A stretch of 64,000 bases of DNA, from the NCBI GenBank assembly GCA_002415345.1, contig DHXV01000001.1, forward strand, positions 484,111 through 548,110, read 5' to 3'. The position numbers were made by a program, and so were the translations under genes. Position 1 is the stretch's first letter. Every line of letters starts with the position of its first letter. Positions 4,968 through 60,970 of this stretch are shown here, piece after piece. The notes under the pieces are model-generated. The model searched no databases. It saw only the letters and a list, made by a program, of their open reading frames with translations, and was not told the DNA's origin. This stretch comes from Patescibacteria group bacterium UBA5147 (GTDB lineage Bacteria; Patescibacteriota; Saccharimonadia; UBA4664).

Positions 4968-5035
4968 TTCGGTCAGGCGTTCGGCATCGAGAGAGCTTAG
5001 GCTTGCTCCTCTAGTCTGTTTAGACTATAACTTCA

Positions 5036-5956
5036 TTGTCCATCCACGTCGCTATAGCAGCGGCGCCCATGAAGGGAAGCACCATGTCTGCACAATCAAC
5101 GCCCGCAGGATCTGATCACCCGCTCATGCAGTTTCAGCCGGAATTTCCGAAAAACTGGTATTACTGGACCCAAGATTGGAAGGCGGCCGGCAATTCCCAC
5201 GTCTTACGGCAAGGACTGATCAGAACCGGCTTCGACACTGGCTTAGTGTGGGGTCACACCAATCACTCCGGCGAGCCGATCTGTTTCTATCTTGAACTGG
5301 CTGACGGCTGGTACAACGGCTTCGTGGGCATGGCGGACGACTATGTCACCTCAAACCGCAAGGAGCTCAGTCAGCTCGCCCTGAGCGTCCTGTTGGAGAA
5401 GGCTTTACGCAATACTGCACCCGACTACCGCCCTCCATCCTGGGCCGATCAACTCGATCAGGATGGGGTACTCGATAAGCTGCTCTGGTTCTTTCGTTCA
5501 GACGGGCAGTCGTCTTGGATCCCCAATCTGGGTTCGGTAAACAGCAGTCCAAGAGAGCAAGCCTTGCGGCGGTTCCTCAAGGACTTCGTCGACTACGTCT
5601 GGCTGGATCGGAGCGGGAATGCGCGATTTACTTTTAGGAATTTTCCGTCTTTCCGGCCGCAGCTTATCGCGATATTGGCCGGCACCAATCGGCTCAAGAT
5701 CCTCCTGGACCCCAAGTACATGCTCGATGAGCCTTGCTGGGAGGCACTTCGGAGCTTGGCCTATTCTGAACATCCGGATAGAGAAGGCGTATCACTTGAA
5801 GAGGCATCTTTTGAATCGAAGGGCCAGACAGCAAAGGATGCCGCCCACGTTTTGATTATGCGTGGCATTGACCGTGACCAGCAGGCTAGAGCCGATGAGC
5901 GGCACGCGCTCAAGCAGAGGCTGCGCGAAACACAGACGCGACTGGAACAGATCTAG
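5036..5956 (+). CDS. Hypothetical protein (306 aa), start uncertain (TTG 5036 or ATG 5069/5084)
   Basis: Long ORF with no recognisable motif. Lies between tRNA-Pro and rnpB. Confidence 0.4.
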   Translation: MSIHVAIAAAPMKGSTMSAQSTPAGSDHPLMQFQPEFPKNWYYWTQDWKAAGNSHVLRQGLIRTGFDTGLVWGHTNHSGEPICFYLELADGWYNGFVGMADDYVTSNRKELSQLALSVLLEKALRNTAPDYRPPSWADQLDQDGVLDKLLWFFRSDGQSSWIPNLGSVNSSPREQALRRFLKDFVDYVWLDRSGNARFTFRNFPSFRPQLIAILAGTNRLKILLDPKYMLDEPCWEALRSLAYSEHPDREGVSLEEASFESKGQTAKDAAHVLIMRGIDRDQQARADERHALKQRLRETQTRLEQI

Positions 5957-5967
5957 CCGGTTTCGAC

Positions 5968-6000
5968 AATCCCTGAGTGGCATCGCGCCACTCAGGGATT
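5968..6000 (+). terminator. Strong 14-bp hairpin after the 306-aa ORF (terminator-like, weak U-tract)
   Basis: AATCCCTGAGTGGC-atcgc-GCCACTCAGGGATT. Confidence 0.45.
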
Positions 6001-6044
6001 TATCATAAGCTTGAAAAAACGGCCTCAAAAAGGCATAATACTCT

Positions 6045-6413
6045 AGTCAGACCAGAAGATGATCGCGCTTGCCGCAAGGCAAGTGAGGAAAGTCCGGACA
6101 GCATAGAGCAGGACGATTGCTAACGGCAACCGGGGGCGACCCTAGGGAAAGTGCCACAGAAACGAGACCGCCTTCAGCAATGGAGGTAAGGGTGAAACGA
6201 GTGCGGTAAGAGCGCACAGCCAAGCCGGGTGACCGGTGAGGGAGGTAAACCCCGTTCGCTGCAAGGCTGCTCCATCACGCCGCAAGGTGGGCTGCTCGCC
6301 CGATGAAGCGTATACGCCGCTTGAGGTCGCTGGCAACAGCGACCCTAGACAGATGATCATCCCGTGCCGGCCTTGCGCCGGCCCGACAGAATCCGGCTTA
6401 CTCCTGGTCTGAC
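6045..6413 (+). ncRNA. rnpB: RNase P RNA (bacterial type A)
   Basis: P1 stem GTCAGACCAG...CTGGTCTGAC, the universally conserved P4 strands GAGGAAAGTCCGGAC and ACAGAATCCGGCTTA, and a CATAAT -10 box about 7 nt upstream. The antisense ORF 6142..6471 is spurious. Confidence 0.8.
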
Positions 6414-6463
6414 ACGTTTTTATTTCGCTTATCATGTTAGAATGAGAGCAATTATCAAAGCTT

Positions 6464-7915
6464 ATGCGCAAACGCAGTGAACTACTTTTTAGTCTAATAC
6501 TCGTCCCGCTCGACTATCTGGCGCTAGTCGCGGCTTTCGTGGCCGCCTATATCGTGCGTGTTAAAATTGACGGCCGGCCGGTCGCGCACCCCGTGGCGGC
6601 GTTGACGTTCTTGAAGCTGGCGCTCATCCTGTTGCCGATTTGGATCCTCATTTTTGCCTTGGCCGGGCTCTACAACCAGTCCAACCAACGGCGCCGTCTC
6701 GATGAGGTGGGTAAGATTTTTATCGCCGTTTCCGGCGGTGTCATGTTCATGATACTGTTGGATTTTTTACAACGGAACTCGATATTTCCGTCTAAGGCCG
6801 TGCCGATTTACGCCTACGGCTTCGGATTAATCGCCGTGTTGCTGGTGCGTACGGTGGTTCGGGCAGTCCAGCGCGCTCTGTTTCGCCTTAACATCGGCGT
6901 GCATCGCGCCCTCATCGTAGGCAGCGGGGAACTGGCGCAGCGCATTGCCGTCAGCCTGGTGCCGGCGACCGGTTACCAGATTGCCGGCTGCATCGACAGT
7001 GCCAAGGGGGCGGGCAGGCGGATGAAGGGGATACAAGTCTATAAATCCTTTGACGAAGCGCTTGATGCTCTTGGGCGCCGCGGATTCGACGAAATCATTC
7101 AGGCCGATTCTGCCTTGGGTCAGGAGGAGATTCTCAATTTGGTGACTTATGCCACCAACAACCACTTGGCTTACCGCTTTATTCCGAACCAGTTCGGTCT
7201 CTACGCCGTTAACTCCCAGATGGGTAATATGGCGGGGATTCCGGTGGTTGAAATCAAGCTCACCCCCCTTGATGGTTGGGGCCGGATCTTAAAACGTGCT
7301 TTCGACGTCATCGGTTCGGTTATCGGACTTATCCTCCTGTCGCCCGTATTCGCGGTTATTGCGCTCAGCATCAAGCTGCGTGATCCGGGTCCGGTGTTTT
7401 ATCGCCACCGCCGCCTCACTCGCATCGGCAAGGAATTGTATATGTTCAAATTCCGCTCGATGTCGCATAAATTCAGCACCAGCCCCAAATTCAAAGGCAA
7501 GACCCCGGAGGAGATATTTGAAATCCTCGGCCGACCCGAATTGGTCAAGGAGTTCAAGATTTCCCAGAAGGTGCAGAATGATCCGCGCATCAGCCAGGTT
7601 GGACGCTTCCTGCGCTCATCCAGCCTCGACGAATTGCCGCAGCTGCTGAACGTGCTCAAAGGCGACATGAGCCTGGTTGGCCCGCGCCCGGTGGTACCGG
7701 TTGAGCTTGAGCGCTACGGCGATTTTGGAGCCAGTTTCCTGGCGCTTAAACCCGGTATTACCGGCCTCTGGCAGGTCTCGGGGCGCAATGACATCAGTTA
7801 TGACGAGCGCGTTAAGCTCGATATCTTCTACGTCGAGCACTGGAGCCTGTGGCTGGATATGAAGATACTGTTCAAGACGTTACTGGTGATCCTCGGTCGC
7901 AAGGGAGCCTACTAG
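6464..7915 (+). CDS. Polyprenyl glycosylphosphotransferase (WbaP/WcaJ-like priming sugar transferase)
   Basis: N-terminal TM helices, a central Rossmann-like region, and the C-terminal bacterial sugar transferase domain with the LKGDMSLVGPRP hallmark. Confidence 0.85.
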   Translation: MRKRSELLFSLILVPLDYLALVAAFVAAYIVRVKIDGRPVAHPVAALTFLKLALILLPIWILIFALAGLYNQSNQRRRLDEVGKIFIAVSGGVMFMILLDFLQRNSIFPSKAVPIYAYGFGLIAVLLVRTVVRAVQRALFRLNIGVHRALIVGSGELAQRIAVSLVPATGYQIAGCIDSAKGAGRRMKGIQVYKSFDEALDALGRRGFDEIIQADSALGQEEILNLVTYATNNHLAYRFIPNQFGLYAVNSQMGNMAGIPVVEIKLTPLDGWGRILKRAFDVIGSVIGLILLSPVFAVIALSIKLRDPGPVFYRHRRLTRIGKELYMFKFRSMSHKFSTSPKFKGKTPEEIFEILGRPELVKEFKISQKVQNDPRISQVGRFLRSSSLDELPQLLNVLKGDMSLVGPRPVVPVELERYGDFGASFLALKPGITGLWQVSGRNDISYDERVKLDIFYVEHWSLWLDMKILFKTLLVILGRKGAY

Positions 7916-19154: not shown

Positions 19155-19532
19155 GGGGCTGATCAGCTTCGACGTTGGGAACTTTACAAGTCATGTGCGC
19201 AGGTCGCAGGTACGCGTTACCATCCAAAAGTTACCTTAACTGGCAACATTTTAAGTCGGGTGAAGGCTGCTTTTGCAGTACCTTCATTCGCTCCCGTTTA
19301 CGCTTAATCACGTAAACTATCGGCACCAGACACCTCATATGGGTTCGCCGGTATCAAATTATGAGGTTGCTCTTTGCAGCGTGTCTCCGCTGCTTAGCTA
19401 AGATCAGAGGCCGCTCCCGCCGTCAGTTTGTCTGAGAAGATGACTTCGGGCTAAGATTGAAATCAGACTAAACCTGTAGTGCACTGGCGAGTAACTCGAC
19501 GGACTGGGGTGCAATTCCCCACAGCTCCACCA
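19155..19532 (+). ncRNA. ssrA: tmRNA (SsrA); tag ORF about 19266..19307 encoding AAFAVPSFAPVYA*
   Basis: 5' GGGGCTGATCAGCTTCGACG matches the tmRNA 5' consensus. 3' end TGGGG-TGCAATT-CCCCA-CAGCTCCACCA is a T-arm plus acceptor plus CCA. The G3:U acceptor pair is the Ala identity element. Confidence 0.85.
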
Positions 19533-38430: not shown

Positions 38431-38492
38431 GCTGTTATCCTAGCAGATTGGCGAGGGAAGCGGCTAAAATTGGTTCACCCCTGCGAAAGCGC

Positions 38493-38507
38493 TATAATAA
38501 GCCAATG
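38493..38507 (+). promoter_or_regulatory. Leaderless promoter of argS (TATAAT, 6 nt, ATG)
   Basis: gcTATAATaagccaATG. Confidence 0.55.
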
Positions 38508-40334
38508 ACTACCAACCCCAGCCAACCCAGTTTCATAGGTTACTCCGGCCTCACAGCCCAACTGGAAGCCTGGCGGGGCACAAACCTCCCACAAACGGCG
38601 CCGCAGTGGCAAACCCCGCCGGACCTGATCCGCGGCATCTTGACCTCGAATCTCGCCTTTCGGGCGGCCAAGGACAGCGGCAAAAATCCCGTTACACTGG
38701 CAACCGAACTTGCGGCCGACCTCGGCGCCTTTATTGCCCAATCCAAACTGCCTGTGACGGCCGAAGCGGTAGGACCGTATCTGAATATCCGGCTGGAAGC
38801 AGAATTTTACCCCGCTCTCCTTACGGCGGAACTGACAACAAACCTGATGGAAACCGATTCCCGGTCCGTCATGCTGGAATACATCGGCGCCAACGTAGCC
38901 AAGCGGCTCCATGCCGGCCACATGCGCAACCTCAATATCGGTGACGCTCTGCGACGTATCCTGGAGCTGAAATACCCGAATCTCATCACCGACAACCACT
39001 GGGGCGACTGGGGGGTTCAGTTCGGCGTGCTGTTATGGGCCTACCGGCAGAATGTCGATCAGGCGGCGTATAAGGCCAGTCCTCTCGATGAACTCCAACG
39101 GCTCTATGTCTGGGGAAACGCCCAGGAAGATACTGTCCCGAACTGGGCGCAACTGGTACGCGCTGAATTCGTGAAACTGGAGCAGGGCGACGCGGGGAGC
39201 CGGGCGCTGTGGGAAGAATTCGTTACCATATCCAAGCGGGAGCTGGCCCACGACCTGGAGCTCTTCGGAGTCCCTCCAACCGACCTGGAGCAAGGTGAAA
39301 GCTTTTATGAGTCCGACATGCAAAGCCTGCGCGAGTTCATGGATACTCGTAATTTGTGGCATTCGGAAGGGGAAGCCCGGTATGTCGATTTTGAGGAACT
39401 GGCGGATTTATGGGAAGGCATCGATAAGCCCCTTCAGGCGAGCGTCGCGACTTTTGGCCGGTGCTACCTTATCAGCTCCAACGGGTACACGACCTATGCC
39501 TTCCGTGACGTGGCCGCCAGGCTCCAATGGGCGCGCGATCACAAAATAGATTTGGCCATCACTGTCACCGATAAGACCCAGGCCCATAACTTCAATCAGG
39601 CGTTTGCGATAATCTGTTATCTGGCAACCTTGCCGGCCTTCGCCGAGCGCTATGGTGCAGTAACGGCCGCACGGCTGAAGTGGGACCGGCTGGTCCATAT
39701 CGGCTACGGGTTCCTCCAATTAGCTAGTGGCAAGATGAGTACCCGGCTTGGCAACGTTCTGGGACTTCCCGAACTGGTGGGTGAGGTCAGCCAAGCCGCC
39801 GCCGCCGCCATCAGTACCCGTTCTCCGGAGCTTCCGGCAAGCCAACGCGACCAGCGTGCGCACGCGGTAGCATTGGCCTCTCTCAAATGGGCCGATCTTA
39901 ACCGGGATCCGCTCACCGACGTAACCTTAGACCCTGAGGCCATAACCCGCTTCGAGGGTAATACCGGGACTTATGAGCTCTATACCTACGCTCGTCTGCG
40001 GAATGTCCTGCGTCGCGCCGGATTCGCACCCAATCTTAAACTGACAGGGGAGAATCAACTGAGCGCTGATCAATACCATCTGTTGGATATCCTATACACA
40101 TTCCCGGGTGTCATCAAGGTTGCCGCGGCCGAATACCGACCCAATCTTATCGCCGCATACGTCTACAATCTGTCGGATGTTGCCAACCGCTGGTACGTGG
40201 CTTCGCCGAAGATCCTGGAATTGGGCCAAGACGATAGCCGGCGTGCGGCTTCATTGCTCCTAATCGATCAAGTCACGACACAATTGGCATTCGGTTTGTC
40301 GCTTCTAGGCATCAACACGGTTGAAGAGCTGTAG
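38505..40334 (+). CDS. argS: Arginine--tRNA ligase
   Basis: HAGH (HIGH variant), GDWGVQFG, and a C-terminal anticodon-binding domain. Start moved to MTTNPS. Confidence 0.85.
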   Translation: MTTNPSQPSFIGYSGLTAQLEAWRGTNLPQTAPQWQTPPDLIRGILTSNLAFRAAKDSGKNPVTLATELAADLGAFIAQSKLPVTAEAVGPYLNIRLEAEFYPALLTAELTTNLMETDSRSVMLEYIGANVAKRLHAGHMRNLNIGDALRRILELKYPNLITDNHWGDWGVQFGVLLWAYRQNVDQAAYKASPLDELQRLYVWGNAQEDTVPNWAQLVRAEFVKLEQGDAGSRALWEEFVTISKRELAHDLELFGVPPTDLEQGESFYESDMQSLREFMDTRNLWHSEGEARYVDFEELADLWEGIDKPLQASVATFGRCYLISSNGYTTYAFRDVAARLQWARDHKIDLAITVTDKTQAHNFNQAFAIICYLATLPAFAERYGAVTAARLKWDRLVHIGYGFLQLASGKMSTRLGNVLGLPELVGEVSQAAAAAISTRSPELPASQRDQRAHAVALASLKWADLNRDPLTDVTLDPEAITRFEGNTGTYELYTYARLRNVLRRAGFAPNLKLTGENQLSADQYHLLDILYTFPGVIKVAAAEYRPNLIAAYVYNLSDVANRWYVASPKILELGQDDSRRAASLLLIDQVTTQLAFGLSLLGINTVEEL

Positions 40335-40384: not shown

Positions 40385-42427
40385 TTACTCTGTTTTAAAG
40401 CTGACCAGCCGACCGTCCACCAAGGCATACCCGGTTTGGAGTGCGCTATCATAGGCGGCATCGTATACTTCCTTGGTGCCGTTGAACGCGTACTGGCGGA
40501 TGAACAACAGACCGCTGGCGGTTGACCAGGTGCCGACATGCTTGGTTGATGGGGATACGGCAATGATAGAGTTCCCATCGGCGGATAGCTTGAGGATAGT
40601 ACTGCCGGATAATCCCGGAGGAACAACGACAGTCGTCTTGAGTACTCCTGCCAAGTATTGGGTCAGCTCCTTGTCCTTGAGTGTGTAGACATTGCCGTCG
40701 ATGGCCATTGCTTTGGAGTCCGCCAGGGTACGCGACTGGGCCACGGACAAGTAAACGATCTTTGGAGAAAACCCACTTAATGTTTTGACATGCTTATATA
40801 TTCCGTCGGAGGAGAGGATGTATAAGTTGCCCACATACGAGGCGATGGCCGACCCGCTTTCCCATTGATTGAGAGCCACCGCTTGAGCCGTCAGGGAATC
40901 GTCGGAGAAGCGGTAATACCAAACGGACGGTTCAGATGTGAGGAGGTACATGCCCAGGTTGTCACTGGATAGCGTTGTAGCTACAACAGCGCCTAATTTA
41001 GAAGTGTCTGCTAGGCTTTTTTTGATAGATTTTGTAGTAATGTTAACAACATAAATCATGGAATCGTTGTTTTTATCGATGAGGTAGGCATGGCCGCCAG
41101 ATACCTCCATGTGGGTCGGGTTAGCATTCTTTTGGCTTGATAGAGATATTATCGTTGAGACTTCGACTCGGTTCAACCCATCGAAACGATCGGCCAAGTC
41201 GCTCATTTGGGCGATTAGCGCTTCAACGGTCGAAGGCTCGCCGGCACTGAGGGTTGCGTGCTTAAGCCGGGTATTAAGACGTGACTTATCGCGGCCTGAT
41301 AACCCCGATATATCTTGTTGGGCCTGCTGCAGACTGGACTTGGCCGACACTGCGTCGGAACTGATAGCCGCCGCCTCGTACGTCTTATAGGCAGCCTCAT
41401 ATCGGGTCAGCAGCTTGGCACTCGCCGCCGAATCCAATGATTGTGAGGCCAGGACACTGCCGACAGCCAGCAGGGTTATCATGACGATGGCGGTTACACG
41501 CCGCCGGCGGGTAGTCGACAGGCTGCTACGCAACGTACCGGCGGCCGCGTATCCGGCGTGCTGCAAGTGCGGCTTGGTCTTGTTCCATCCGGCTTTAGCG
41601 GTGCTGCCGACAAGCTTGGTTGAGGCGATGGTCGCATCTTTAATCGGCACGGCGGCAAAACGGGCAGCTTCCAAGGTGGTTTCAGGAGTTCCCAGCTGGA
41701 TTTCACTTGGTTCGTCGCTGCGTACCTGAAGTGCGGCCTGTTCCGGCGTGGTCAGACCGATTATAAGGGCGGCAACCCGTTCGGTCGAAGCGTCCTTTAG
41801 CAGGTCGGTCAGTTCATTGATTGCGCGGGTCGGACTGTTGGTTGAGACGACCTCCTGGAGCCGCTTCAGTGGCAGCTGGTGGAACAGGGCGGGAGTCGCG
41901 ATGAGCAAACGGTCATCATCCTCCAGATTGCCGCTGGCGATGGAGCCGAAAGTCTTGGCGGGCCCACCGCTGCGTTCGGACGGATGAGCGGTGATGCGGG
42001 TACCGGATTTGCCGCGGTAAAGATATGCCTCTGAGGAACCGGTATGGCTGATATGAAGCTCCGACTCGTGCTGGACGGCGATGACGGCGCTCAGTTTGCC
42101 TATCCAGGCGGCGTTGCCCTGATTTATGTACTCCAGAAGTTCTCGGTTGACTATCTTGGTGGCCGTCTCGAAACGCGATAGGGGGTCGGCCGCCTGATTC
42201 TCCTCGTTGTAATACTGCTGGCCGAAGGACTCGATGATAAGATCCGCCACTTCTTCACTCTGGCGGCCGCCGGCAACCACTTCGATAACGACATAAAAAT
42301 TGCCGTAGGCGGCGGCCCGTTCGTCGCTCAGGGGTTCATAGGCATAGGCAGTAACAAAACTCGGCACTTGCTTCGGCCGTTTGGCGTAGGGGACGAGCTT
42401 AGCTGTTCGGGTAATAAGGTCTGCCAA
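40385..42427 (-). CDS. Large membrane-anchored protein: N-terminal cytoplasmic PP2C/SpoIIE-like domain (tentative), one TM, and an extracytoplasmic beta-rich region
   Basis: 680 aa with a central TM (VTAIVMITLLAVGSVLA). The N-terminal about 250 aa has Asp-rich motifs reminiscent of PPM phosphatases. Confidence 0.45.
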   Translation of the reverse strand: MADLITRTAKLVPYAKRPKQVPSFVTAYAYEPLSDERAAAYGNFYVVIEVVAGGRQSEEVADLIIESFGQQYYNEENQAADPLSRFETATKIVNRELLEYINQGNAAWIGKLSAVIAVQHESELHISHTGSSEAYLYRGKSGTRITAHPSERSGGPAKTFGSIASGNLEDDDRLLIATPALFHQLPLKRLQEVVSTNSPTRAINELTDLLKDASTERVAALIIGLTTPEQAALQVRSDEPSEIQLGTPETTLEAARFAAVPIKDATIASTKLVGSTAKAGWNKTKPHLQHAGYAAAGTLRSSLSTTRRRRVTAIVMITLLAVGSVLASQSLDSAASAKLLTRYEAAYKTYEAAAISSDAVSAKSSLQQAQQDISGLSGRDKSRLNTRLKHATLSAGEPSTVEALIAQMSDLADRFDGLNRVEVSTIISLSSQKNANPTHMEVSGGHAYLIDKNNDSMIYVVNITTKSIKKSLADTSKLGAVVATTLSSDNLGMYLLTSEPSVWYYRFSDDSLTAQAVALNQWESGSAIASYVGNLYILSSDGIYKHVKTLSGFSPKIVYLSVAQSRTLADSKAMAIDGNVYTLKDKELTQYLAGVLKTTVVVPPGLSGSTILKLSADGNSIIAVSPSTKHVGTWSTASGLLFIRQYAFNGTKEVYDAAYDSALQTGYALVDGRLVSFKTE

Positions 42428-45953: not shown

Positions 45954-46029
45954 CGGGGTGTGGCGCAGTTGGTAGCGTGCTGTGTTCGGAACGCAGAGGT
46001 CGCAGGTTCAAGTCCTGTCACCCCGACCA
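45954..46029 (+). tRNA. tRNA-Pro (anticodon CGG)
   Basis: Same acceptor and T-arms as the GGG isoacceptor. Anticodon loop TTCGGAA. CCA encoded. Confidence 0.88.
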
Positions 46030-48431: not shown

Positions 48432-50588
48432 TCAGTCTGTGACTGTCGAAGTGGGTAAGGGAGTCTCCGAGGGTGGAGCTTGATTCCCTGGTTCCTGGGT
48501 GGGGGTAGTTTCAGGCGGCACCGTGGTCGGTTCCGCCGTTACGGTTGGGTCCGGGGTCGTAATCGTGTCCGGAGGCTGGTCCGGGGTCGGAGTGTCGGCC
48601 GGCGTCGTCGGCGCGGGGGGAGGTGGCGCCAACATATTGGTGCCGTTTGAACTCGGAGCGCTGAAATAGTGGACCGCTATGTTGCGATGGGCCACTTCCA
48701 TGAAATCGCGCCACATGATGGCGGCCGAGCTGCCACCGAATACCTGTCGCCCGCTCACCGTTAGGTTGCGGTTGTCCAGGTAGCCGGTCCAGGCTGCCGC
48801 CACGTAATCGGGCGTGTAACCGGCGAACCAGGCGTCAAACAGGGTGGTGCCGGTTTTGCCGGCCGCCGGCCGTCCGAAGTCGGCGCGGTTGGCCGTACCT
48901 GACGGGCTGTGAATGACCGACTGCATCACTTTGGTGAGCTGGGCAGTCGCTTCGGCATCCATGACCGGCGTTGTCTGAACCTGATGCTGGTACAGAACGG
49001 TACCGTCGGCTGCGGTGATGCTGCTGACGATGAAGCTTTCGGCATGGTTTCCGTTGTTAGCCCAAGTGCCGTAGGCCGAAGCCATCTGCAAGGGGGTAAT
49101 GGAACTGGTTCCCAGGGCCAGTTCCGGAACAGCGTCGAGATGAGGCGGCGCGTCACCGCTCATCAATTCAGCTGTACCGTAAAGAGTGTCGTCGATGCCC
49201 AGTTTATGAGCCAGATCGGCGACGCTCTGCGGGCTTACCGGGTCATTCGGGATAGGGAAGGTGTTGCTCGGGCTCCCGGGATCTGCCTGGGTACCGTTGA
49301 TGAGCTGCATGTGCCACGGGTTGTTGGACGTTGCCAGGGCGCGTGTCATATCCAGATAGCCGTGAGCCGTGCGGTCATCATTGTAGACCTTGGTCCCGCC
49401 GATGAGCGCGTAGGCCGGAGCCGGCAAGACGGCGTCGGTAGAAACGCCCTTGGAAATGGCGTCAGCTAACACGAACGGTTTCATGGCCGAGCCGACTTGC
49501 CTGGTGCCCTGAACGGCAATATCGAACTGCAGTTTGGCGTGGGACGTGGAGTTGGCCAAAGCCACCACGGCTCCGGTCTTGGGACTGATTACCGCCATGG
49601 CCGCAACCAGCTTGGGGCTGGAAAGGTTGGATACGAGTGACCGTTTGGCTGCCTGTTGGAGCTTCCAATTGATCGTGGTGTATATCCGGAACCCGCCCTG
49701 CGCCACGGCAGCTTCGCCCCTGGTTTTGACCAGGTATTGCCGGACGAGGTCGGTGATGTACGGTTCCAACGGCATTGAAGCCTTGGCTGCCGCTTTTTCC
49801 TTGATGAATCCCAGCGGCTGTTTGGCCACAAGGGCTGCTTCTTCGGGCGCGATGTTGCCGAGCTCTTGCATCGTGGCAAGAACGTGGGAGTTGCGCCGTC
49901 TGAGCAGATTGGGAGCGTACTTGGCCATGGCATAGTTGCAGGGCTGTTGCACCATGGCGGCCAACGTGGCCGCTTCCGCAACGGATAGCTTAGTTGCGCC
50001 GTGGCCGAAATAGGCCCGTGCGGCCGCATCTATTCCGTAGGCATTGCGGCAGAAGAACACCGTGTTCAGGTACAGGCCAAGGACTTGGTCCTTGGTGTAC
50101 TCTCTGTCCAGGTGTTGGGCCATGCCCATATCCTTGAATTTGCGGCCACCTGTCTGATCGAGCGTGAGCAGGGCGTTTTTGGCGTATTGCTGCTCCAAGG
50201 TTGAACCGCTAGCGAGCTGAAGGCTGCCATGGGTCAACGATTTCGCAATCGTAAGGAATGAACGGTACATCCCGGTATATGACACGCCGTTTTCAGCGTA
50301 AAAGTCCTTATCTTCCGAGGCGATGATGGCCTGCTTCATAACCATGGGTATTTCAGTTTTGGGATCCAGGTCATGGCGGTTTTCCGAAGCCGGAATCACA
50401 CCAATAACCGTTGTGCGGTCGCTGGCATACACGATGGAGTCTTGCGGATTCGGTGGTATGGGCGGCAGGGCAACGATACTCTGGGCAGCGTAGGCAAGGG
50501 CAGGCGGACCGGCCCCAACGACGATAACTCCGAGAACAATCATCCAGCCGACGAATTTTCGAAAACCATGTCTTTGTTGTACGCTCAC
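48432..50588 (-). CDS. Class A penicillin-binding protein (transglycosylase plus transpeptidase) with a Pro/Thr-rich C-terminal tail
   Basis: GGAGGTG RBS before the GTG start. GT51 motif ASEDKDFY and the TPase SxxK (SAMKPF). Confidence 0.85.
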   Translation of the reverse strand: MSVQQRHGFRKFVGWMIVLGVIVVGAGPPALAYAAQSIVALPPIPPNPQDSIVYASDRTTVIGVIPASENRHDLDPKTEIPMVMKQAIIASEDKDFYAENGVSYTGMYRSFLTIAKSLTHGSLQLASGSTLEQQYAKNALLTLDQTGGRKFKDMGMAQHLDREYTKDQVLGLYLNTVFFCRNAYGIDAAARAYFGHGATKLSVAEAATLAAMVQQPCNYAMAKYAPNLLRRRNSHVLATMQELGNIAPEEAALVAKQPLGFIKEKAAAKASMPLEPYITDLVRQYLVKTRGEAAVAQGGFRIYTTINWKLQQAAKRSLVSNLSSPKLVAAMAVISPKTGAVVALANSTSHAKLQFDIAVQGTRQVGSAMKPFVLADAISKGVSTDAVLPAPAYALIGGTKVYNDDRTAHGYLDMTRALATSNNPWHMQLINGTQADPGSPSNTFPIPNDPVSPQSVADLAHKLGIDDTLYGTAELMSGDAPPHLDAVPELALGTSSITPLQMASAYGTWANNGNHAESFIVSSITAADGTVLYQHQVQTTPVMDAEATAQLTKVMQSVIHSPSGTANRADFGRPAAGKTGTTLFDAWFAGYTPDYVAAAWTGYLDNRNLTVSGRQVFGGSSAAIMWRDFMEVAHRNIAVHYFSAPSSNGTNMLAPPPPAPTTPADTPTPDQPPDTITTPDPTVTAEPTTVPPETTPTQEPGNQAPPSETPLPTSTVTD

Positions 50589-52723: not shown

Positions 52724-53716
52724 ATGAAACGAGTGCTCTCAGGCGTAAAGCCAACCGGTGATCTGACCCTAGGTAATTATATTGGCGCCATGAAGCGTTG
52801 GGCTACTATGAGCCGCCAGGAAGGCGTTGAGCACTTCTGGTTCGTACCAAACCTCCACGCCCTGACTATTCGCCCCAACCCCGCAGAGCTTAAGCACAAC
52901 ACGCGCAGCGCGGTCGCTTGGCTGATGGCCGCCGGCATTGACCCGGCAACGTCGTATATCTTTGTGCAGAGTCAGATTCCGGCGCACTCGGAGCTCACTT
53001 GGATCCTCAACAACTACGCTACCTTAGGGGAGCTGAACCGGATGACCACGTTCAAGGACAAGTCGTCCAAAATGGGGAGCGAGGGCCAACTCGTGGGTCT
53101 GTTCGATTACCCCGTGCTGATGGCGGCGGATATCCTGTTGTACGACGCGGACGAAGTACCGATTGGAGAAGACCAGAAACAGCATGTGGAACTTACGCGT
53201 GACATTGCGACCCGCTTTAACAACCTTCACGGTGAGACGTTCAGGGTACCCGAGCCAACGATTCAGGCTGCCGGCGCACGTATCATGGACTTGCAGGATC
53301 CGACGAAGAAGATGAGTAAGAGTGATGAGGATACCGGCGGTTGTATCCTCTTGAGTGACGAGCCGGCCGTGATTGTGAAAAAGATCATGCGGGCCGTTAC
53401 CGACAGCGGCAGTCAGATAAGCGGAGGCGCCGATAAGCCGGCGCTCAGCAACCTGCTGGTAATTTACTCGACGCTGTCCGGCAAGACGGTAGCTTCCATT
53501 GAGGAAGACTATGCCGGGCGTGGTTACGGCGAATTCAAGAAGGACCTTGCCAAGGTCGTAGCCGACGAGCTGGCTCCACTCCAGGCCAAGCACGCCCAGC
53601 TTATGAAACCGGGTAACGATAAGATCGACCAGGCTCTGGAGCACGGCTGGTGGAGGGCGAGCGAGCTCGCGAACGCCAAGCTGGCCCAAGTAAAGGAGTT
53701 GCTCGGGCTATTGTAA
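52724..53716 (+). CDS. trpS: Tryptophan--tRNA ligase
   Basis: VLSGVKPTGDLTLGNYIGA (HIGH-like TLGN) and KMSKS. Confidence 0.9.
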   Translation: MKRVLSGVKPTGDLTLGNYIGAMKRWATMSRQEGVEHFWFVPNLHALTIRPNPAELKHNTRSAVAWLMAAGIDPATSYIFVQSQIPAHSELTWILNNYATLGELNRMTTFKDKSSKMGSEGQLVGLFDYPVLMAADILLYDADEVPIGEDQKQHVELTRDIATRFNNLHGETFRVPEPTIQAAGARIMDLQDPTKKMSKSDEDTGGCILLSDEPAVIVKKIMRAVTDSGSQISGGADKPALSNLLVIYSTLSGKTVASIEEDYAGRGYGEFKKDLAKVVADELAPLQAKHAQLMKPGNDKIDQALEHGWWRASELANAKLAQVKELLGLL

Positions 53717-54589: not shown

Positions 54590-54964
54590 GTGACGACCAA
54601 GCGATATATTATAGCGCTGAGTGTGTGGGCCTCCGGTACGGGAGTGGCGCTTATTGCGTCGCTAATTTTTACCACTCCCGTGGCGATTGGGCCGGTGGGA
54701 GTGACGATTTGGTTCGTCGTCCTGTTAACTGAGGCTGCCGCGGCCGCTACCTTGGCATTATATGGCATCAAGACCTACCTGCACCTTCACGCCACGGAGG
54801 CGCTACGTCTGCGGTATTCATGGCGCCAGGGCTGGCTGATCGGCGGCTGGGCGGCCGGTCTGCTGGCGCTCAATTCGTTGCAGCAGCTTGGCATAAAAGA
54901 CGCTATCCTGCTAGGATTACTATTATCGATTGTTGAGGTGTATGTGAGGCTGCGATGGCCATGA
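54590..54964 (+). CDS. Small membrane protein (124 aa, 4 TM) translationally coupled to pheS
   Basis: GTG start. CATAAT -10 box about 30 nt upstream. Overlaps the pheS start by 10 nt. Confidence 0.45.
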   Translation: MTTKRYIIALSVWASGTGVALIASLIFTTPVAIGPVGVTIWFVVLLTEAAAAATLALYGIKTYLHLHATEALRLRYSWRQGWLIGGWAAGLLALNSLQQLGIKDAILLGLLLSIVEVYVRLRWP

Positions 54965-55983
54965 GTCAAACCGAATATGTCGCTCGTATCAAGGCCGCCA
55001 AGACTCTGGCGGAGCTTGAGGCTGTGCGCGTGGAATTGCTGGGCCGCCAAGGCGAGTTGACCAAGGAGCTCAAAAGCATCGGTTCGCTGCCGGCGGACGA
55101 GCGGGCAGGGAAGGGTGCCAGCCTGAACGCACTGCGAACTGTCATTGAGCAGGGTCTGACGGAGCGACAAAGGGCGCTGGCGGTCAGCGCGGCCAAGGAT
55201 GAATTATCGACGCCTCTGGATGTTACGGCACCTGGCGTGATACCGCCGCTGGGCCATCGTCATCCGGTCAGCATGGTGCTTGATGAGTTGGTCGAACTGT
55301 TCTGGCAAATGGGCTACCAGGTAGCCGACGGTCCGGAAGTCGAGACGGAATGGCATATTTTTGAAGCGCTCAATATCCCGGCTGATCATCCGGCTCGTGA
55401 CATGCAGGACACGTTCTATCTGGAAAACGGCCTGGTTCCGCGTACCCATACCTCGGGAATTCAGATCCGCCATATGTTGGAGAATCGCGACAACCTCCCG
55501 ATCCGCATTGTGGCACCCGGCAAAGTCTACCGTAATGAAGATGAGGATTCGCGCCATTCCTGGAGTTTCTATCAGATAGAAGGTCTGGTCGTTGACGAGG
55601 GGATCAGCCTGGGCGATCTCAAGGGGACGCTCGAGATTATGCTTCGGGGGCTGCTCGGCGAAGAAACCAAAATCCGCCTGCGGTCCAATTACTTTCCGTA
55701 TACCGAGCCGAGCGTGGAAATGGACGCGACCTGCGTAGTGTGCGGCGGGAGTGGCCAATTTGAAGCCAAAACCTGTCACTTGTGTGGCGGTACGGGTTGG
55801 TTGGAGCTCGGCGGAGCGGGAATGGTTCATCCGCAGGTCCTGCGCAATGTCGGAATAGATCCGGAGCGATACAGCGGATTTGCCTTTGGGTTTGGGCCCG
55901 AGCGGATTGCGGCAATTAAATACGGCGTTGATGACGTCCGTGAATTCTGGCGTCCGGATTTCAAATTTCTCGAGCAGTTTTAA
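54955..55983 (+). CDS. pheS: Phenylalanine--tRNA ligase alpha subunit
   Basis: Class II motifs and FPYTEPS...GWLELGGAGMVHP. Confidence 0.9.
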   Translation: MAMSQTEYVARIKAAKTLAELEAVRVELLGRQGELTKELKSIGSLPADERAGKGASLNALRTVIEQGLTERQRALAVSAAKDELSTPLDVTAPGVIPPLGHRHPVSMVLDELVELFWQMGYQVADGPEVETEWHIFEALNIPADHPARDMQDTFYLENGLVPRTHTSGIQIRHMLENRDNLPIRIVAPGKVYRNEDEDSRHSWSFYQIEGLVVDEGISLGDLKGTLEIMLRGLLGEETKIRLRSNYFPYTEPSVEMDATCVVCGGSGQFEAKTCHLCGGTGWLELGGAGMVHPQVLRNVGIDPERYSGFAFGFGPERIAAIKYGVDDVREFWRPDFKFLEQF

Positions 55984-56130: not shown

Positions 56131-59010
56131 ATGAGGGTTTCCACGTCTTGGATTAAAGAATGGCTATGTCGCACAATGTCTGATAAAGATATTGTTCAGG
56201 CAATGGAGCAGGCCGGTATCGAAGTTGAACAATATATTGCGTCAACGCAGCTAGACAAAAAAGTTGTTGTAGGGCTGGTTAAAAAAGTTATTCAACATCC
56301 CGGAGCGGATAGGCTGCATATCGTTGACGTCACGACCGGCGAGACTGAACTATCGATAGTCTGCGGTGCGCCGAATGTTCGAGCAGGTTTGAAAGTGGCG
56401 GTCGCCCAGGTTGGGTCCACTCTTCCGGACGGTACGGTAATTAAAAAGTCCAAACTGAGAGGCGAGGTGAGTGAGGGGATGCTTTGCAGCGCCAGCGAGC
56501 TGGGATTGGGCAACGATCACGACGGCTTGATTGAGCTCGACGAGGAAGCGGGACTCGGGACATCATTGTGCGACATGTACGAAAACCACGGCATCGTGGA
56601 CGTGAAGACGGCTGCCAACCGGTCTGATTTGCAGTCGGTTGTCGGTTTGAGCCGCGAAGTCGCGGCAATCGCCAATATCGATCTAAAGGATATGGTGGAA
56701 GCGGCAGAATCTAAAGGCAGTGGCCCGGCCGTCGAGATTGAGGCCTCCCCCTCTTTGGTCAGCCAGTTGGTGTTGGCAGAGTTTAAGCTGGGGGCGTCCG
56801 GTAAGATTGACCCCAAGTTGCTACAACTTATGGCCGAGCGTTTGCGGGCTAGCGGGATACGTCCGATTTCCCCTGTCGTTGACGTGACGAATTACGTCAT
56901 GCTGGAGTACGGCCAGCCATTGCACGCTTATGATGCGGATAAGGTTACTTTGCCGCTGGGCTCAAGGCTCGCCAAGGCCGGCGAAACCCTGGTGACACTT
57001 GATGGCGTAAAGTGTGTCTTAACCGTCGATGATCTGGTAATAACCGATAAGACCGGCGTAATCGGCCTGGCGGGAGTCATGGGCGGCGCCCAAACCGAAA
57101 TTACGGCCGGCACGAACCGGATATATCTGGAAGCGGCAACTTTTGACGGCGGTCGAATAAGGAAGACCGCTAAACGGTTCGGGCTCAGAAGCGAGGCCAG
57201 CGCCAGGTTTGAACGCGGGCTTCCGGTGCAGTTGGCTCCGCTGGGCTTGGCTCGGGCGGCTGAGCTGTTGAACCGTGCGGCCGGGGCCGAACTCCAGGGC
57301 GGCGTTACTGATGTGCTGAGGATTTGGCCGTGGACGCAACGAATCGGCTTGAAGATACCGGTACTCAATCAGCTGTTGGGCTACGAGCTGACCGCCAAAG
57401 AAGCCTGCCAGGCTCTGTCCCGGTTTGGCATTTCGGCAGTACCCTTTGACATCGCCCGTGAGGCGCGGAGCCACTTGGGAAAGCCCTACGTCTGGGGCGC
57501 ATCATTTAAGAAGAACGGCACAAACGACTTTGATTGCAGTTATTTTACCGACTACCTCTATTCTCTTATCGGCCTGCGTATCGGTTATACTTCGTTGGCT
57601 CAATTCGAAATTGGAACGCCGGTTGAGGTGGATGATCTGAAGCCCGGTGATATTTTGTTCTACAATGGTCATCACGACCATGTATCCAAAGATTATGGCT
57701 TGTCAGAGGTACAAAACGGCGATCAGCACCACTCGATCGAGGGTTATTACTTCCTGTGGAGCGACGCCGACAACAAGTACGTCAGGGTGGAAAGCAAGCT
57801 CGGCCAACATGTCGGGCATAACGGTTTGTACGTGGGCGACGGACGCGTGGTGCATGCCGTGAAAATGGAGGCTGACGGCGAGACATGGCGGGAGCGCGAG
57901 GCAACCGGTGTCGTTGAAGAAGACGTTGAAACCTTCACGAAAAATGCCGGCTTCCTAGGAGCCCGCCGCTTTGATGACAATCTTGATACATATGTCTCAG
58001 TCGCCGCAGTTCCCTGGTGGCGGACCGATCTGAAGCTGGCCGTGGACTTGGTAGAGGAGATTGTCCGGGTCCTTGGGTATGACCGGGTGCCATCAACGAT
58101 CCCGGTTTGGCGTCCTACTACCCTGAAGTTTGACAAGACCCACCGACTCAACAGCCGTGTTAAGAATCTGCTCAGCGGCGCCGGATTGTTTGAAATTATG
58201 ACATATTCGTTCGTGGGCGAAGACCAGCTGGCAGCGGTTGGTTTGAAGCCCGAAAATCACTTGAAGCTGCAGAACCCGCTGTCGAGCGAGCAGGCGTTCT
58301 TGCGCACTTCGTTGCTGCCGAGTCACCTGCAGGTATTGGTCCGCAATCGCACCTATGCCAAAGCCATTGGCTTTTACGAATTGAGCAAGGTGTTTGTTCC
58401 GGTCGAGGGCGACGGACAACCCGACGAGCCCCTACGGCTGGCGATCTTGGTCGCCCGCCCCCAAGACTCGTACCGTCATCTCAAAGGCCTGCTGGACGCA
58501 CTGAATTTGGAATTTAACGTAGCATTTGCGCTCACCCCCGTTGACGAACCCAATGCTTTTGCCCCCGGGCGTGTCGCTCAAATCAGCTTGGCAAAGAAGG
58601 TCATCGGCACCGTCGGGCAGCTTAATCCGGCCCTTCTGAGAGCCAACAAAATAGGCGGCGAAGCCGCCTATTTGGAACTCGATATCGAGCCGATTCTGGC
58701 GGCGGCTGCCCCTAAGAAGTTCGCCGGCCTCAACCGCTTCCCCGGTACGAGCCGTGACATTTCTTTTGTTGCCGGCAGCGATGTCAGCTGGTCGGAGGTA
58801 TTGGCAGCGCTCAAAGGTTTGCATCATGCAACCGTCACTTACGTGGGTGAATATGCCGGAGCAAACGTGCCCGTTGGAAATCGTAGCCTGAGCTTGCGTC
58901 TGACTCTGAGCTATCCCGACCGTACGCCAACCGAGGAAGAGGCCGGGCGGATGGAAGCTCAAGCCTGGTCCGTGTTGGAACGAAAATTCGGTATCAAGCC
59001 TAACCTGTGA
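56131..59010 (+). CDS. pheT: Phenylalanine--tRNA ligase beta subunit carrying an NlpC/P60-like domain insertion (about 57451-57975) inside the B5 region
   Basis: N-terminal MRVSTSWIKEWL, tRNA-binding OB (EGMLCSASELGL), B5 halves (SRFGISAVPFD ... AAVPWWRTDLKLAVDLVEEIVRVLGYDRVP), and a C-terminal FDX-ACB. The insert has GKPYVWGA...FDCSYF...PGDILFY...HVGHNGLYVGDGRVVHA. Confidence 0.85.
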   Translation: MRVSTSWIKEWLCRTMSDKDIVQAMEQAGIEVEQYIASTQLDKKVVVGLVKKVIQHPGADRLHIVDVTTGETELSIVCGAPNVRAGLKVAVAQVGSTLPDGTVIKKSKLRGEVSEGMLCSASELGLGNDHDGLIELDEEAGLGTSLCDMYENHGIVDVKTAANRSDLQSVVGLSREVAAIANIDLKDMVEAAESKGSGPAVEIEASPSLVSQLVLAEFKLGASGKIDPKLLQLMAERLRASGIRPISPVVDVTNYVMLEYGQPLHAYDADKVTLPLGSRLAKAGETLVTLDGVKCVLTVDDLVITDKTGVIGLAGVMGGAQTEITAGTNRIYLEAATFDGGRIRKTAKRFGLRSEASARFERGLPVQLAPLGLARAAELLNRAAGAELQGGVTDVLRIWPWTQRIGLKIPVLNQLLGYELTAKEACQALSRFGISAVPFDIAREARSHLGKPYVWGASFKKNGTNDFDCSYFTDYLYSLIGLRIGYTSLAQFEIGTPVEVDDLKPGDILFYNGHHDHVSKDYGLSEVQNGDQHHSIEGYYFLWSDADNKYVRVESKLGQHVGHNGLYVGDGRVVHAVKMEADGETWREREATGVVEEDVETFTKNAGFLGARRFDDNLDTYVSVAAVPWWRTDLKLAVDLVEEIVRVLGYDRVPSTIPVWRPTTLKFDKTHRLNSRVKNLLSGAGLFEIMTYSFVGEDQLAAVGLKPENHLKLQNPLSSEQAFLRTSLLPSHLQVLVRNRTYAKAIGFYELSKVFVPVEGDGQPDEPLRLAILVARPQDSYRHLKGLLDALNLEFNVAFALTPVDEPNAFAPGRVAQISLAKKVIGTVGQLNPALLRANKIGGEAAYLELDIEPILAAAAPKKFAGLNRFPGTSRDISFVAGSDVSWSEVLAALKGLHHATVTYVGEYAGANVPVGNRSLSLRLTLSYPDRTPTEEEAGRMEAQAWSVLERKFGIKPNL

Positions 59011-59072: not shown

Positions 59073-60509
59073 ATGGTAGGAGTTACAAACCTAAGCGTCT
59101 TCCGAACCGGCATCTGGGCGTCGGTTGGTCGCGGCGTGGTATTCATTGCCGGGATCGGCACGGTGATAGTGCTAGGTGCTCAGCTGGTCCTGCAAGGATA
59201 TTACGCGGACAAGATACTGCCGGGGGTTACAGTCGCCGGGAAAGACATCGGGTCCCTGACTTTGGCTCAGGCACGCGAAAAAATCACCGGAATTACTCGC
59301 AACTATACGCTGAAGCTAAGCATCGACGATAAGCAGTTTTCCGCAACGCCAGCCGATATCGGATTAAAATATTCTGTTGAAACAACCATCAAGACGGCCT
59401 ACGATGCCCGCCGTGATCTACTGCTTCCTACCCCTGAAGCCCGCCTGCCTTTGACTTATTCCTTAGATAATAACCGGCTTAAATCTTACGTGGCATCGAT
59501 TGCGGCCCGTATCGGCACCGAGGCAACCGACGCGACCCTGGTCGTCAAAGGCACGGACGTCCAAGTAGTACCCGACAAGGATGGATGGTCGATTGATCCG
59601 GTACGTCTGGCCGGGCTGATCAGGGCGGATGCATCCGTGCCTTCGGCGACCGCCGTGAGGCTTGCTGCGACCCAGCAGCCGGCCCGCATCCTGGCCTCAA
59701 GCGTTACCCCAGCTATTGAGCAGGCCAACCACTTTATGGCCGTACCTATAACGCTGACCTATCAGGACCGGGCTTTCGTGCCGTCGGCCGCGGAAATAGG
59801 CAGTTGGCTCACTTTCAACGGACGGGTCGAGGGTGACAAATCGAGGCTGGTGGCCGGTGTGGATATCGCCAAGATTCGCGGCTATGTCCAACTGGTGGCG
59901 GGCAAGGTTAACGTGCCGCCGGTCGACAAGAAAATAATCATCGAAAACGGCGTCACACGAGTGGAGCGTGAAGGCACCGACGGTATGGCAATCGATCAGG
60001 ATCCCGCCGTGGCGGCCGTGCAGCAAGCAGTGACCGATCAACAGCCGCTGGTTTTCCCGGTCACGACGCACGTGGTGCCGTTCAAGACCCTCTCAACTTC
60101 GCTGGTCAGCCTGGACTACGGGCGATACATTGAAATCAACCTGTCTAAGCAGCACCTGTGGGTGTGGCAGGATCATGCCGTAATTTATGACGCGCCGATT
60201 ACCAGCGGTGCGACCGGAGCCGGGTTCCCGACCGTAACCGGGCTGTTCAGCGTCTACTACAAGGCGACCAATACCCATTTGCGCGGGTACGCCTACGGGC
60301 CGCAATACAACTATGACGTCCAGGTGGATTATTGGATGCCCTTTTACTCAGGCTTCGGCATGCACGACGCCAGTTGGCGCAACGGCAATTTCGGCGGTCA
60401 GGATTATTACTACGGCGGCTCCCATGGATGCGTTAATCTTCCCGATGACGCGGCGGCGTTCATCTATAATTGGGTTGAAGTCGGCACGCCGGTCTGGGTG
60501 CATAAATAA
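59073..60509 (+). CDS. L,D-transpeptidase (YkuD domain) with an N-terminal VanW/YoaR-like region
   Basis: C-terminal GGSHGCVNL catalytic motif. N-terminal TM. Confidence 0.8.
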   Translation: MVGVTNLSVFRTGIWASVGRGVVFIAGIGTVIVLGAQLVLQGYYADKILPGVTVAGKDIGSLTLAQAREKITGITRNYTLKLSIDDKQFSATPADIGLKYSVETTIKTAYDARRDLLLPTPEARLPLTYSLDNNRLKSYVASIAARIGTEATDATLVVKGTDVQVVPDKDGWSIDPVRLAGLIRADASVPSATAVRLAATQQPARILASSVTPAIEQANHFMAVPITLTYQDRAFVPSAAEIGSWLTFNGRVEGDKSRLVAGVDIAKIRGYVQLVAGKVNVPPVDKKIIIENGVTRVEREGTDGMAIDQDPAVAAVQQAVTDQQPLVFPVTTHVVPFKTLSTSLVSLDYGRYIEINLSKQHLWVWQDHAVIYDAPITSGATGAGFPTVTGLFSVYYKATNTHLRGYAYGPQYNYDVQVDYWMPFYSGFGMHDASWRNGNFGGQDYYYGGSHGCVNLPDDAAAFIYNWVEVGTPVWVHK

Positions 60510-60565: not shown

Positions 60566-60970
60566 ATGAACCCGCAAACCCCCCAATCACCCCAACCAAG
60601 TTCCGAGCAGCTGCCAGTACAGTCTCCCGAGCAGACCGTAACTGCCGCCGGAGTTGAGCTACCGGCTCAAACCGTTCCGGCCGCGGACGGTGCGCCGGCT
60701 GCTTCTTCACCGAAATTGAATGCCAGCGACGTTGCCGCGGCCATCGCTTCCATGCCCGCGCCCAACGCTGCCGTCACCCCGACCTTGCCCCTTCCGGCCA
60801 TCGCGGCGGACGAGGATCTTATCGAGCCGGAGTGGGTTGATAAAACAGAAGAAGTAATAGCCCAAACATCGGGCAATCCGTATGCTGAGGAAGAAGCCAT
60901 TGAGGATTTACAGGTCGATTACCTGCAGAAGAGGTATGGCCACCAGGTAAAGAAGCCGGAAGATAAATAA
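60566..60970 (+). CDS. Hypothetical Pro/Ala/Gln-rich protein (134 aa)
   Basis: Low-complexity N-terminus and an acidic C-terminus. Confidence 0.35.
   Translation: MNPQTPQSPQPSSEQLPVQSPEQTVTAAGVELPAQTVPAADGAPAASSPKLNASDVAAAIASMPAPNAAVTPTLPLPAIAADEDLIEPEWVDKTEEVIAQTSGNPYAEEEAIEDLQVDYLQKRYGHQVKKPEDK

Follow-up and report, generated by a model that had tools for sequence, protein, structure and literature searches.

A putative C40 (NlpC/P60) hydrolase domain nested in the B5 domain of phenylalanyl-tRNA synthetase beta in Saccharimonadia and other Candidate Phyla Radiation bacteria

Phenylalanyl-tRNA synthetase (PheRS) is universal, essential and intensively studied, and the locus described here raises the question of what a domain that resembles cell-wall hydrolases is doing inside its beta subunit, PheT. 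The gene lies in a 64,000-nucleotide stretch (hereafter the window) of Patescibacteria group bacterium UBA5147, a member of the Saccharimonadia (assembly GCA_002415345.1, contig DHXV01000001.1, positions 484,111 to 548,110, forward strand); nucleotide coordinates below are window positions. The initial annotation, made from the letters alone, had placed an NlpC/P60 domain between the two halves of the B5 region of this PheT, and the placement was borne out by a profile match, the predicted fold, the catalytic residues and recurrence on independent assemblies. Taking identity, fold and antiquity together, we are highly confident that PheT carries a complete papain-fold C40 domain within B5 as an ancient conserved insertion.

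The insert and its host protein

The 959-amino acid PheT is encoded by one continuous open reading frame (ORF; 56131..59010, +). It scored 605.3 bits against the bacterial pheT equivalog TIGR00472 (cut-off 402.65), and its Pfam domains followed the order tRNA_bind (residues 45-144), B3_4 (232-385), NLPC_P60 (450-518), B5 (624-650), CLM (654-852) and FDX-ACB (869-956). Apart from the insert, this is the full B1/B2-B3/4-B5-CLM-B8 order that, together with the equivalog score, defines a bacterial PheRS beta. The B3/4 editing domain (56824..57285, +) also aligned to a solved enterobacterial PheT of 795 amino acids (7n8y_B), and the catalytic-like module and the FDX-ACB anticodon-binding domain (58090..58998, +) matched with E values of 2.2e-43 and 2.3e-11, respectively. 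The AlphaFold2 (AF2) model of the full protein, built from an 84-sequence alignment, had a mean pLDDT of 91.1, and Foldseek matched it to bacterial PheRS beta chains (E ~1e-73, TMt 0.65-0.71). Directly upstream and in the same orientation lies pheS (54955..55983, +), coding for a PheRS alpha of 342 amino acids with Pfam tRNA-synt_2d (E 2e-94) and Phe_tRNA-synt_N. Domain order, editing residues and the adjoining pheS are thus common to this PheT and to canonical PheRS beta (E. coli 3PCO, T. thermophilus 1PYS/2IY5, P. aeruginosa 4P71). Because the canonical domains and the B3/4 editing residues are kept and pheS adjoins, we took the insert-bearing PheT to be a working PheRS beta; a scan for a second C40 domain or a second PheT, which covered the 64-kb window, found neither.

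The alignment to 7n8y_B located the insert precisely. Residues 1-435 aligned to 1-436 and residues 625-953 to 446-789, so that ~190 residues stand in place of ~9 inside B5. The first half of B5 (strand 1, two helices and strand 2; residues ~405-439, 57343..57447, +) aligned to ~405-436 of 7n8y_B, and AF2 placed a strand at 405-408 and helices at 409-416 and 422-430. The second half (strand 3, VPWWR, and helix 3; 57985..58086, +) aligned from 446 onwards, and the Pfam B5 match at 624-650 covers only profile positions 41-67 of 67. Between them, the NlpC/P60 insert (residues ~440-618, 57448..57984, +) sits at the tip of the B5 beta-hairpin, or 'wing', where insert-less relatives have 7-10 residues. 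In those relatives the hairpin reads ...LQIEAQPAD-SAEIIAVPAVPWWRPD..., and in the window it reads FGISAVPFD, followed by the insert from IAREA to NLDTYVSV and then by AAVPWWRTD, with the C40 domain exactly at the turn. Compared with canonical PheRS beta, ~180 residues replace a ~9-residue turn; an insert in the B5 hairpin is seen in none of the solved bacterial chains of this subunit that were listed, 27 in number and 775-836 residues long.

In the full PheT, NLPC_P60 (PF00877, MEROPS C40; cut-off 23) matched residues 450-518 with an E value of 4e-12 and 46.5 bits, and the hidden Markov model search of the insert alone (57451-57975, residues 441-615) that had been proposed as a check gave 52.6 bits (E 4.9e-14). 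The match spans profile positions 1-68 only, as an internal loop interrupts it; the second half was recovered by alignment and fold. NCBIfam gave partial RipC, p60 and RipB matches on the insert. The motifs quoted in the initial annotation are all present and in canonical NlpC/P60 register, with GKPY at 450 (GKPY453vWGa), FDC469SY (Cys469 codon 57535..57537, +), PGDIL at 505 and LGARR at 609. The catalytic-His stretch reads VGH563NGLYVGDGRVVH575A, that is H563-x-G-x-Y-x-G-x-G-x-x-x-H575-A, in which His563 (57817..57819, +) is in the register of the canonical HVGIYxGxG motif and His575 (57853..57855, +), in VVHA, is the third triad residue.

In the full AF2 model the insert had pLDDT values of 90-98 except for the internal loop (62-77), and modelled alone it reached a pLDDT of 90.6 and a pTM of 0.88, as expected of an independent papain-like domain. 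All of the top 50 Foldseek matches of the insert model in the PDB were NlpC/P60 peptidoglycan endopeptidases (probability 1.00, TMt up to 0.82), at only 15-27% identity to the solved structures. Among these neighbours are the secreted C40 DL-endopeptidases C. difficile Acd24020 (7CFL), E. faecium SagA (6B8C), B. subtilis LytE and CwlO, E. coli MepS/Spr and M. tuberculosis RipA, a family of enzymes to which RipB and RipC also belong, as well as the YkfC-like 3h41. The insert resembles the secreted enzymes in Pfam family, in papain-like fold (TMt 0.7-0.82) and in a Cys-His-His triad, with the motifs G.PY.WG., FDCS, PGD, H.G.Y.G.G..HA and G.RR in a common register. A profile score above cut-off, the papain-like fold and the order Cys, His, third polar residue all place it in the NlpC/P60 family. 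Unlike the secreted enzymes, it has an extra ~10 to 45 residues between the PGD and catalytic-His strands.

In the window this extra segment is a His-rich loop of ~45 residues (511-556; 57661..57798, +), which confirms the internal loop noticed at the outset, and its length differs among homologues. Inserts fall into size classes of ~141-158, 168-174 and 186-192 residues, in which the loop is absent, partial and full, respectively. These classes are patchy on the host tree, where for example a homologue with a 190-residue insert (P0025) is sister to one with 154 residues (P0056); repeated gain and loss of the loop or recombination between pheT alleles could account for this.

Distribution and history of the insertion

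The survey of orthologues that had been suggested for this locus gave a clear result. The same site carries the insertion in 74 of the 120 best PheT homologues, the other 46 being without it (39-100% identity; JGI, ENA, NCBI and Logan). Scanning one genome for each GTDB species by motif gave 50 loci; in every case the match fell within a pheT ORF, or within a pheT cut off by the contig end, and the loci were titled Saccharibacteria, Saccharimonadia, Patescibacteria or unclassified 'bacterium' metagenome-assembled genomes (MAGs), with one Howlettbacteria. In one of these representatives (L039) the insert-bearing pheT appears as two overlapping ORFs (4689-5747 and 5635-7488), a frameshift that is either a sequencing error or the mark of a pseudogene.

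An insert profile searched against 1.84 billion cluster representatives matched about 30 PheT clusters at E<1e-50 and also many proteins of 770-845 amino acids at residues ~340-490. The latter belong to shorter PheTs (~770-850 amino acids) without the N-terminal tRNA_bind/B2 domain and with NLPC_P60 within B5, and all of the 120 best matches to a profile of these proteins share the C40-in-B5 architecture. Among the organisms named as their sources are Pacebacteria, Terrybacteria, Yonathbacteria, Lloydbacteria, Zambryskibacteria, Parcubacteria group and Paceibacterota. C40-in-B5 thus occurs in no fewer than two major classes of the Candidate Phyla Radiation (CPR). Although it had been called non-standard, and is indeed unusual for model bacteria, C40-in-PheT is the rule over large parts of the CPR/Patescibacteria and no peculiarity of one genome. 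It also explains the names that these essential genes receive from the NCBI pipeline, namely 'phenylalanine--tRNA ligase beta subunit-related protein', 'PheT-related protein' or 'C40 family peptidase'; the sequences are thus already in public databases under inconsistent automatic names. A full-text literature search, with most subscription journals outside its scope, turned up no account of a C40/NlpC-P60 domain in PheT or PheRS. When the insert region alone (57400-58020) was used as query against an index of 5.8 billion proteins, only six weak free NlpC/P60 matches were returned and a 100%-identical protein (P0007) was missed along with near-identical and other PheTs that the full-length query had recovered, which we suspect to be a limit of candidate selection and not a sign of rarity of the insert.

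Two clusters of small proteins consist only of the split B5 and the C40 insert, both with catalytic Cys and His kept. One (P0220, 219 amino acids; locus L056, 846-1505) is encoded upstream of a gene for a C39-like peptidase (Peptidase_C39_2) and of gyrB, at the position where pheT lies in two other loci (L053 and L055). The other (P0223, 205 amino acids) lies after secD-secF (secDF) on five contigs, which come from different samples (6001-6618 in L057 and L058, 5405-6022 in L059). Searching the stand-alone loci by tblastn with whole PheTs recovered the B5+C40 part and no other PheT remnants. These proteins suggest that B5+C40 is an autonomous unit. The best matches to the insert profile included proteins with up to nine NlpC/P60 domains in tandem (P0128, 1183 amino acids; P0151, 785 amino acids; P0150, P0153 and others), of which P0128 has 9 Pfam NlpC/P60 stretches and 707 bits; they rank high because the scores of single domains add up.

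Outside the insert, the positions that best discriminate insert-bearing from insert-less Saccharimonadia PheTs form one motif, L396-x-V-W399-P-W401-x-Q-R-x-G406, which with the following x-R/K408 spans the B4/B5 linker and B5 strand 1 (57316..57354, +). G406 is present in 100% of insert-bearing and 0% of insert-less Saccharimonadia PheTs, W399 and W401 in 91% and 0%, respectively. G406 is also found in 127 of the 139 insert-bearing PheTs of Parcubacteria type. The C40-in-B5 architecture together with G406 provides a marker by which these CPR lineages can be diagnosed from sequence.

In a neighbour-joining (NJ) tree of the C40 domain, a single split separated the 70 PheT- or B5-linked domains from the 17 free NlpC/P60 domains nearest to them (70/0/0); on bootstrapping, the 70 remained together in 30 of 30 replicates and the split was perfect in 12 of 30. 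In the NJ tree of the host region, insert-less Saccharimonadia PheTs formed at least three groups nested among insert-bearing ones. Since the insertion site is identical in both classes, G406 is common to them, the C40 tree is split in this way and the distribution is broad, the data point, with moderate confidence, to a single ancient insertion early in the CPR/Patescibacteria, which would have been inherited vertically in PheTs of Saccharimonadia type (~910-970 amino acids) and of the B2-less Parcubacteria type (~770-850 amino acids) and cleanly lost several times in Saccharimonadia.

These results also bear on the possibility that the insert is an artefact or a mobile element, be it a chimeric assembly, an ORF joined by a frameshift, an intein or recent foreign DNA. 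The slightly lower G+C content, 0.48 in 57450-57749 against ~0.56-0.61 in the flanks, would fit such an origin. Against it stand the unbroken ORF, the recurrence of the architecture on many independent JGI, ENA, NCBI and Logan contigs from 100% down to 39% identity and in 50 species-level genomes, and a divergence of the insert that matches that of its host; mean pairwise identity is 52.8% for the insert core and 48.1% for the host, compared with 54.8% for B3/4, 45.1% for CLM and 36.7% for FDX-ACB. Pairwise identities of insert and host correlate positively and weakly (Pearson 0.35, Spearman 0.16), which neither proves strict co-phylogeny nor shows transfer. As had been argued at first, the insert is not an intein: no Hint or intein family was found in PheT at E<=0.01 in the profile scan, and the junctions (..PFD|IARE.. 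and ..YVSV|AAVPWW..) are not splice junctions. With recurrence and co-divergence added to these two results, we rejected intein, mobile element and chimera alike, and the chance that any such origin applies is practically nil. A few insert-bearing fragments of bacterial-type PheT (P0092, P0275/P0276) are labelled in NCBI as Nanoarchaeia or Aenigmarchaeota archaeon, and are probably CPR contigs mis-binned into DPANN MAGs.

Catalytic residues, coupling to PheRS and possible function

The candidate active site is strongly conserved in both PheT classes. Cys469 is kept in 73 of 75 inserts of Saccharimonadia type, being replaced by Ser in the other two, and in 139 of 139 of Parcubacteria type, and exactly the same counts hold for His563. 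Over about 215 sequences, with identities as low as 36-40%, both residues are near-invariant. The third triad residue is polar in 66 of the 75 Saccharimonadia-type inserts (H 47, D 7, E 5, Q 4, N 3) and is H in 134 and N in 4 of those of Parcubacteria type (138/139). Furthermore, the active-site motifs (FDCS and H.G.Y.G.G..HA) are more conserved than the surrounding surface. Purifying selection would leave such a pattern in an active enzyme, and it speaks against a passenger domain that has decayed or serves structure alone. Of the suggestions first made for the domain, moonlighting, regulatory or inactivated, the last is therefore disfavoured, given the retention of Cys and His and a conservation of the insert like that of the editing domain; we consider the C40 domain to be probably competent for catalysis.

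The domain also appears to be fitted to its host. The W-P-W...G motif may represent a co-evolved surface on which C40 packs against B5. The canonical editing site seems to need no replacement, as the B3/4 residues R244, N254, H265, G318, E334, S354 and A356 are intact in the window PheT when aligned to 7n8y_B, a G318W editing mutant (the set is R244, N254, H265, G318, E334, T354, A356 in E. coli numbering, and the window has S at 354). N254, H265, G318 and E334 are invariant in 84 sequences and near-invariant in the 139 of Parcubacteria type. As the window PheT and both PheT classes have kept these residues, we rejected the idea that C40 compensates for a degenerate B3/4 site or replaces a lost one.

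On these grounds we propose that the C40 domain would be an active cysteine hydrolase, with Cys469 as nucleophile, His563 as base and His575 as orienting residue, packed against B5 through the W-P-W...G motif. It would act in the cytoplasm, because PheRS has no signal peptide; the PheT N-terminus aligns from residue 1 with 7n8y_B and has no hydrophobic leader. The secreted C40 enzymes bear signal peptides for export and modules that direct them to the wall (LysM, SH3b, coiled coil), whereas the PheT insert is leaderless and nested in a cytoplasmic synthetase. All other domains of the protein are PheT domains, and with neither an export signal nor a wall-targeting module C40-PheT should not be filed as an autolysin. 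By homology, the default substrate would be an amide of the gamma-D-glutamyl-diamino-acid type in free peptidoglycan stem peptides or precursors. A class A penicillin-binding protein (PBP) is encoded in the window (48432-50588, -), which implies that the organism makes peptidoglycan. A possible model is the gamma-D-glutamyl-L-diamino acid endopeptidase of YkfC type from B. cereus (BCE_2878, 3H41), whose NlpC/P60 domain was matched by both sequence and fold search. YkfC functions in the recycling of murein peptides and acts on free stem peptides and not on the sacculus. YkfC stands alone as a protein, and the two SH3b domains at its N-terminus contribute to its specificity, whereas the PheT insert has no SH3b and has B5 as its partner; the functional analogy thus goes no further than a suggestion. 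The C40 domain could play a YkfC/MpaA-like role in salvage or turnover, with PheRS as an always-expressed scaffold. CPR organisms depend on scavenged building blocks, and a salvage role would fit this way of life. We regard a stem-peptide substrate as a tentative assignment.

Overall we lean, as a compromise between the confidence of its parts, towards a cytoplasmic C40 hydrolase of ancient origin and vertical descent, competent for catalysis and docked on PheRS, as judged from sequence and predicted structure. Several observations weigh against this proposal or parts of it. The third triad residue is non-polar in 9 of the 75 Saccharimonadia-type inserts (listed M 5, T 2, F 2). The residues after the catalytic Cys differ by PheT class (DCSY.xD vs DCSSF), which argues against a strictly conserved substrate pocket, and the substrate specificity is extrapolated from relatives at only 15-27% identity. 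The NJ trees are distance-based and crude, and their sample of free domains is small and biased. Several Saccharimonadia lineages have lost the domain, so it is dispensable for PheRS activity there. In addition, the co-evolved, apparently rigid docking on B5 together with the stand-alone B5+C40 proteins hints at a function coupled to B5 and PheRS and not at a passive ride on a scaffold.

This last point leads to the possibility that the domain is a CPR-specific accessory enzyme of tRNA-linked quality control or transfer. Its Cys-His centre might cleave ester or thioester bonds, either on (mis)acylated tRNA-Phe or on a product derived from Phe-adenylate, as a second proofreading or deacylase site with a different chemistry, or might transfer an aminoacyl or peptidyl group to an acceptor through an acyl-enzyme, a Cys469 thioester, and so connect the peptide chemistry of the cell wall with Phe-tRNA-Phe or PheRS. 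It would then be a new kind of proofreading or transfer domain, of which the stand-alone B5+C40 proteins would be trans-acting versions. Hydrolase domains inserted in aminoacyl-tRNA synthetases are usually editing domains, such as class I CP1, the INS domain of ProRS and PheRS B3/4, and typically have free-standing homologues, like the B5+C40 proteins with their intact Cys and His. The CP1 domain of Leu/Ile/ValRS and the YbaK-like INS of ProRS are, like PheT C40, autonomous hydrolase folds placed in a surface loop of a synthetase. Moreover, the NlpC/P60 superfamily includes the acyltransferases LRAT and PLAAT, which work through a thioester, and the insert-specific motif suggests a fixed orientation on the synthetase. 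B5 itself has a nucleic-acid-binding-like helix-turn-helix fold (PMC3275996). However, unlike CP1 and INS, PheT C40 has no sequence or fold kinship to editing domains: no homology to CP1, B3/4, YbaK/INS, AlaX or DTD was found, and its neighbours in sequence and fold are exclusively NlpC/P60 peptidoglycan amidases and neither LRAT-like nor of deacylase fold. With the canonical B3/4 site fully conserved in both classes there is no lost function to compensate, and the domain has been lost repeatedly without loss of PheT. We therefore judge a tRNA-linked role to be unlikely, though it is the foremost rival to the proposal above.

The conserved triad would also suit a cysteine peptidase directed at proteins or peptides, one that processes, deconjugates or degrades a cytoplasmic partner or PheRS and acts as a regulatory switch between translation capacity and another process. 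Papain-fold relatives include isopeptidases, and the variable, lineage-specific loop beside the active-site strands could gate access. This reading is quite unlikely in our view, as the insert has no isopeptidase or deubiquitinase homology, its best matches are all endopeptidases of gamma-D-Glu type, and no conserved partner gene lies nearby, the downstream gene being ykuD in Saccharimonadia and gyrB in other lineages. A non-catalytic module, that is a pseudoenzyme that stabilises B5 and PheRS or binds a ligand, would agree with the co-evolved packing motif, with the inserts that have a non-polar third residue or Ser for Cys, and with the existence of inactive NlpC/P60 proteins such as RipD (a weak NCBIfam match). 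The retention of Cys and His across deep divergence and the excess conservation of the active-site motifs over the surrounding surface make it improbable. Whatever the substrate of the putative hydrolase, what looks like a second live active site has persisted through the diversification of at least two major CPR classes, in a protein that minimal genomes cannot lose, and such long retention implies a selected function. The answer would bear on the metabolism of ultra-reduced, host-dependent bacteria, with salvage of stem peptides, proofreading by a new chemistry or a peptidase with a regulatory role as candidates.

Neighbouring genes

The gene downstream of pheT is, as first noticed, an L,D-transpeptidase (YkuD with PG_binding_4 by Pfam; 59073..60509, +). 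We found no evidence that the two are functionally linked. The order small ORF-pheS-pheT-ykuD-small ORF is kept in 35 of the 50 insert-bearing GTDB loci, and pheS was detected upstream of pheT in 49 of them, but at least 8 insert-bearing pheT genes with enough downstream sequence have no ykuD after them, and ykuD also follows insert-less pheT (L051 and L052). In other CPR lineages gyrB, not ykuD, lies downstream of pheT. We thus rejected a link between C40 and the transpeptidase, and the pheT-ykuD adjacency is lineage synteny.

PheS of the window has a peculiarity of its own, a double CxxCxGxG insert resembling a zinc knuckle at residues ~254-281 (55714-55797; CVVCGGSGQFEAKTCHLCGGTG), with a faint match to DnaJ_CXXCXGXG. 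The strict double motif is present in 6 of 49 related pheS genes, and a CxxC...CxxC version adjoins insert-less pheT in L051 and L052; as few pheS carry the strict motif and the looser version occurs beside insert-less pheT, this insert is lineage-specific and independent of the one in PheT.

The region around pheST is rich in aminoacyl-tRNA synthetase genes, with a class Ib synthetase of Trp/Tyr type at 52724-53716 and ArgRS at 38448-40334, and genes for RmuC and the class A PBP are also near. RNA genes in the window are RNase P RNA (class A; 6047-6416), tmRNA (19155-19532) and two tRNAs (4490-4562 and 45954-46026). No Pfam family was matched by an ORF of 680 amino acids (40385-42427, -) or by two small ORFs at 54590-54964 (+) and 60566-60970 (+). 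These two small ORFs flank pheST and are syntenic with it in most related loci.

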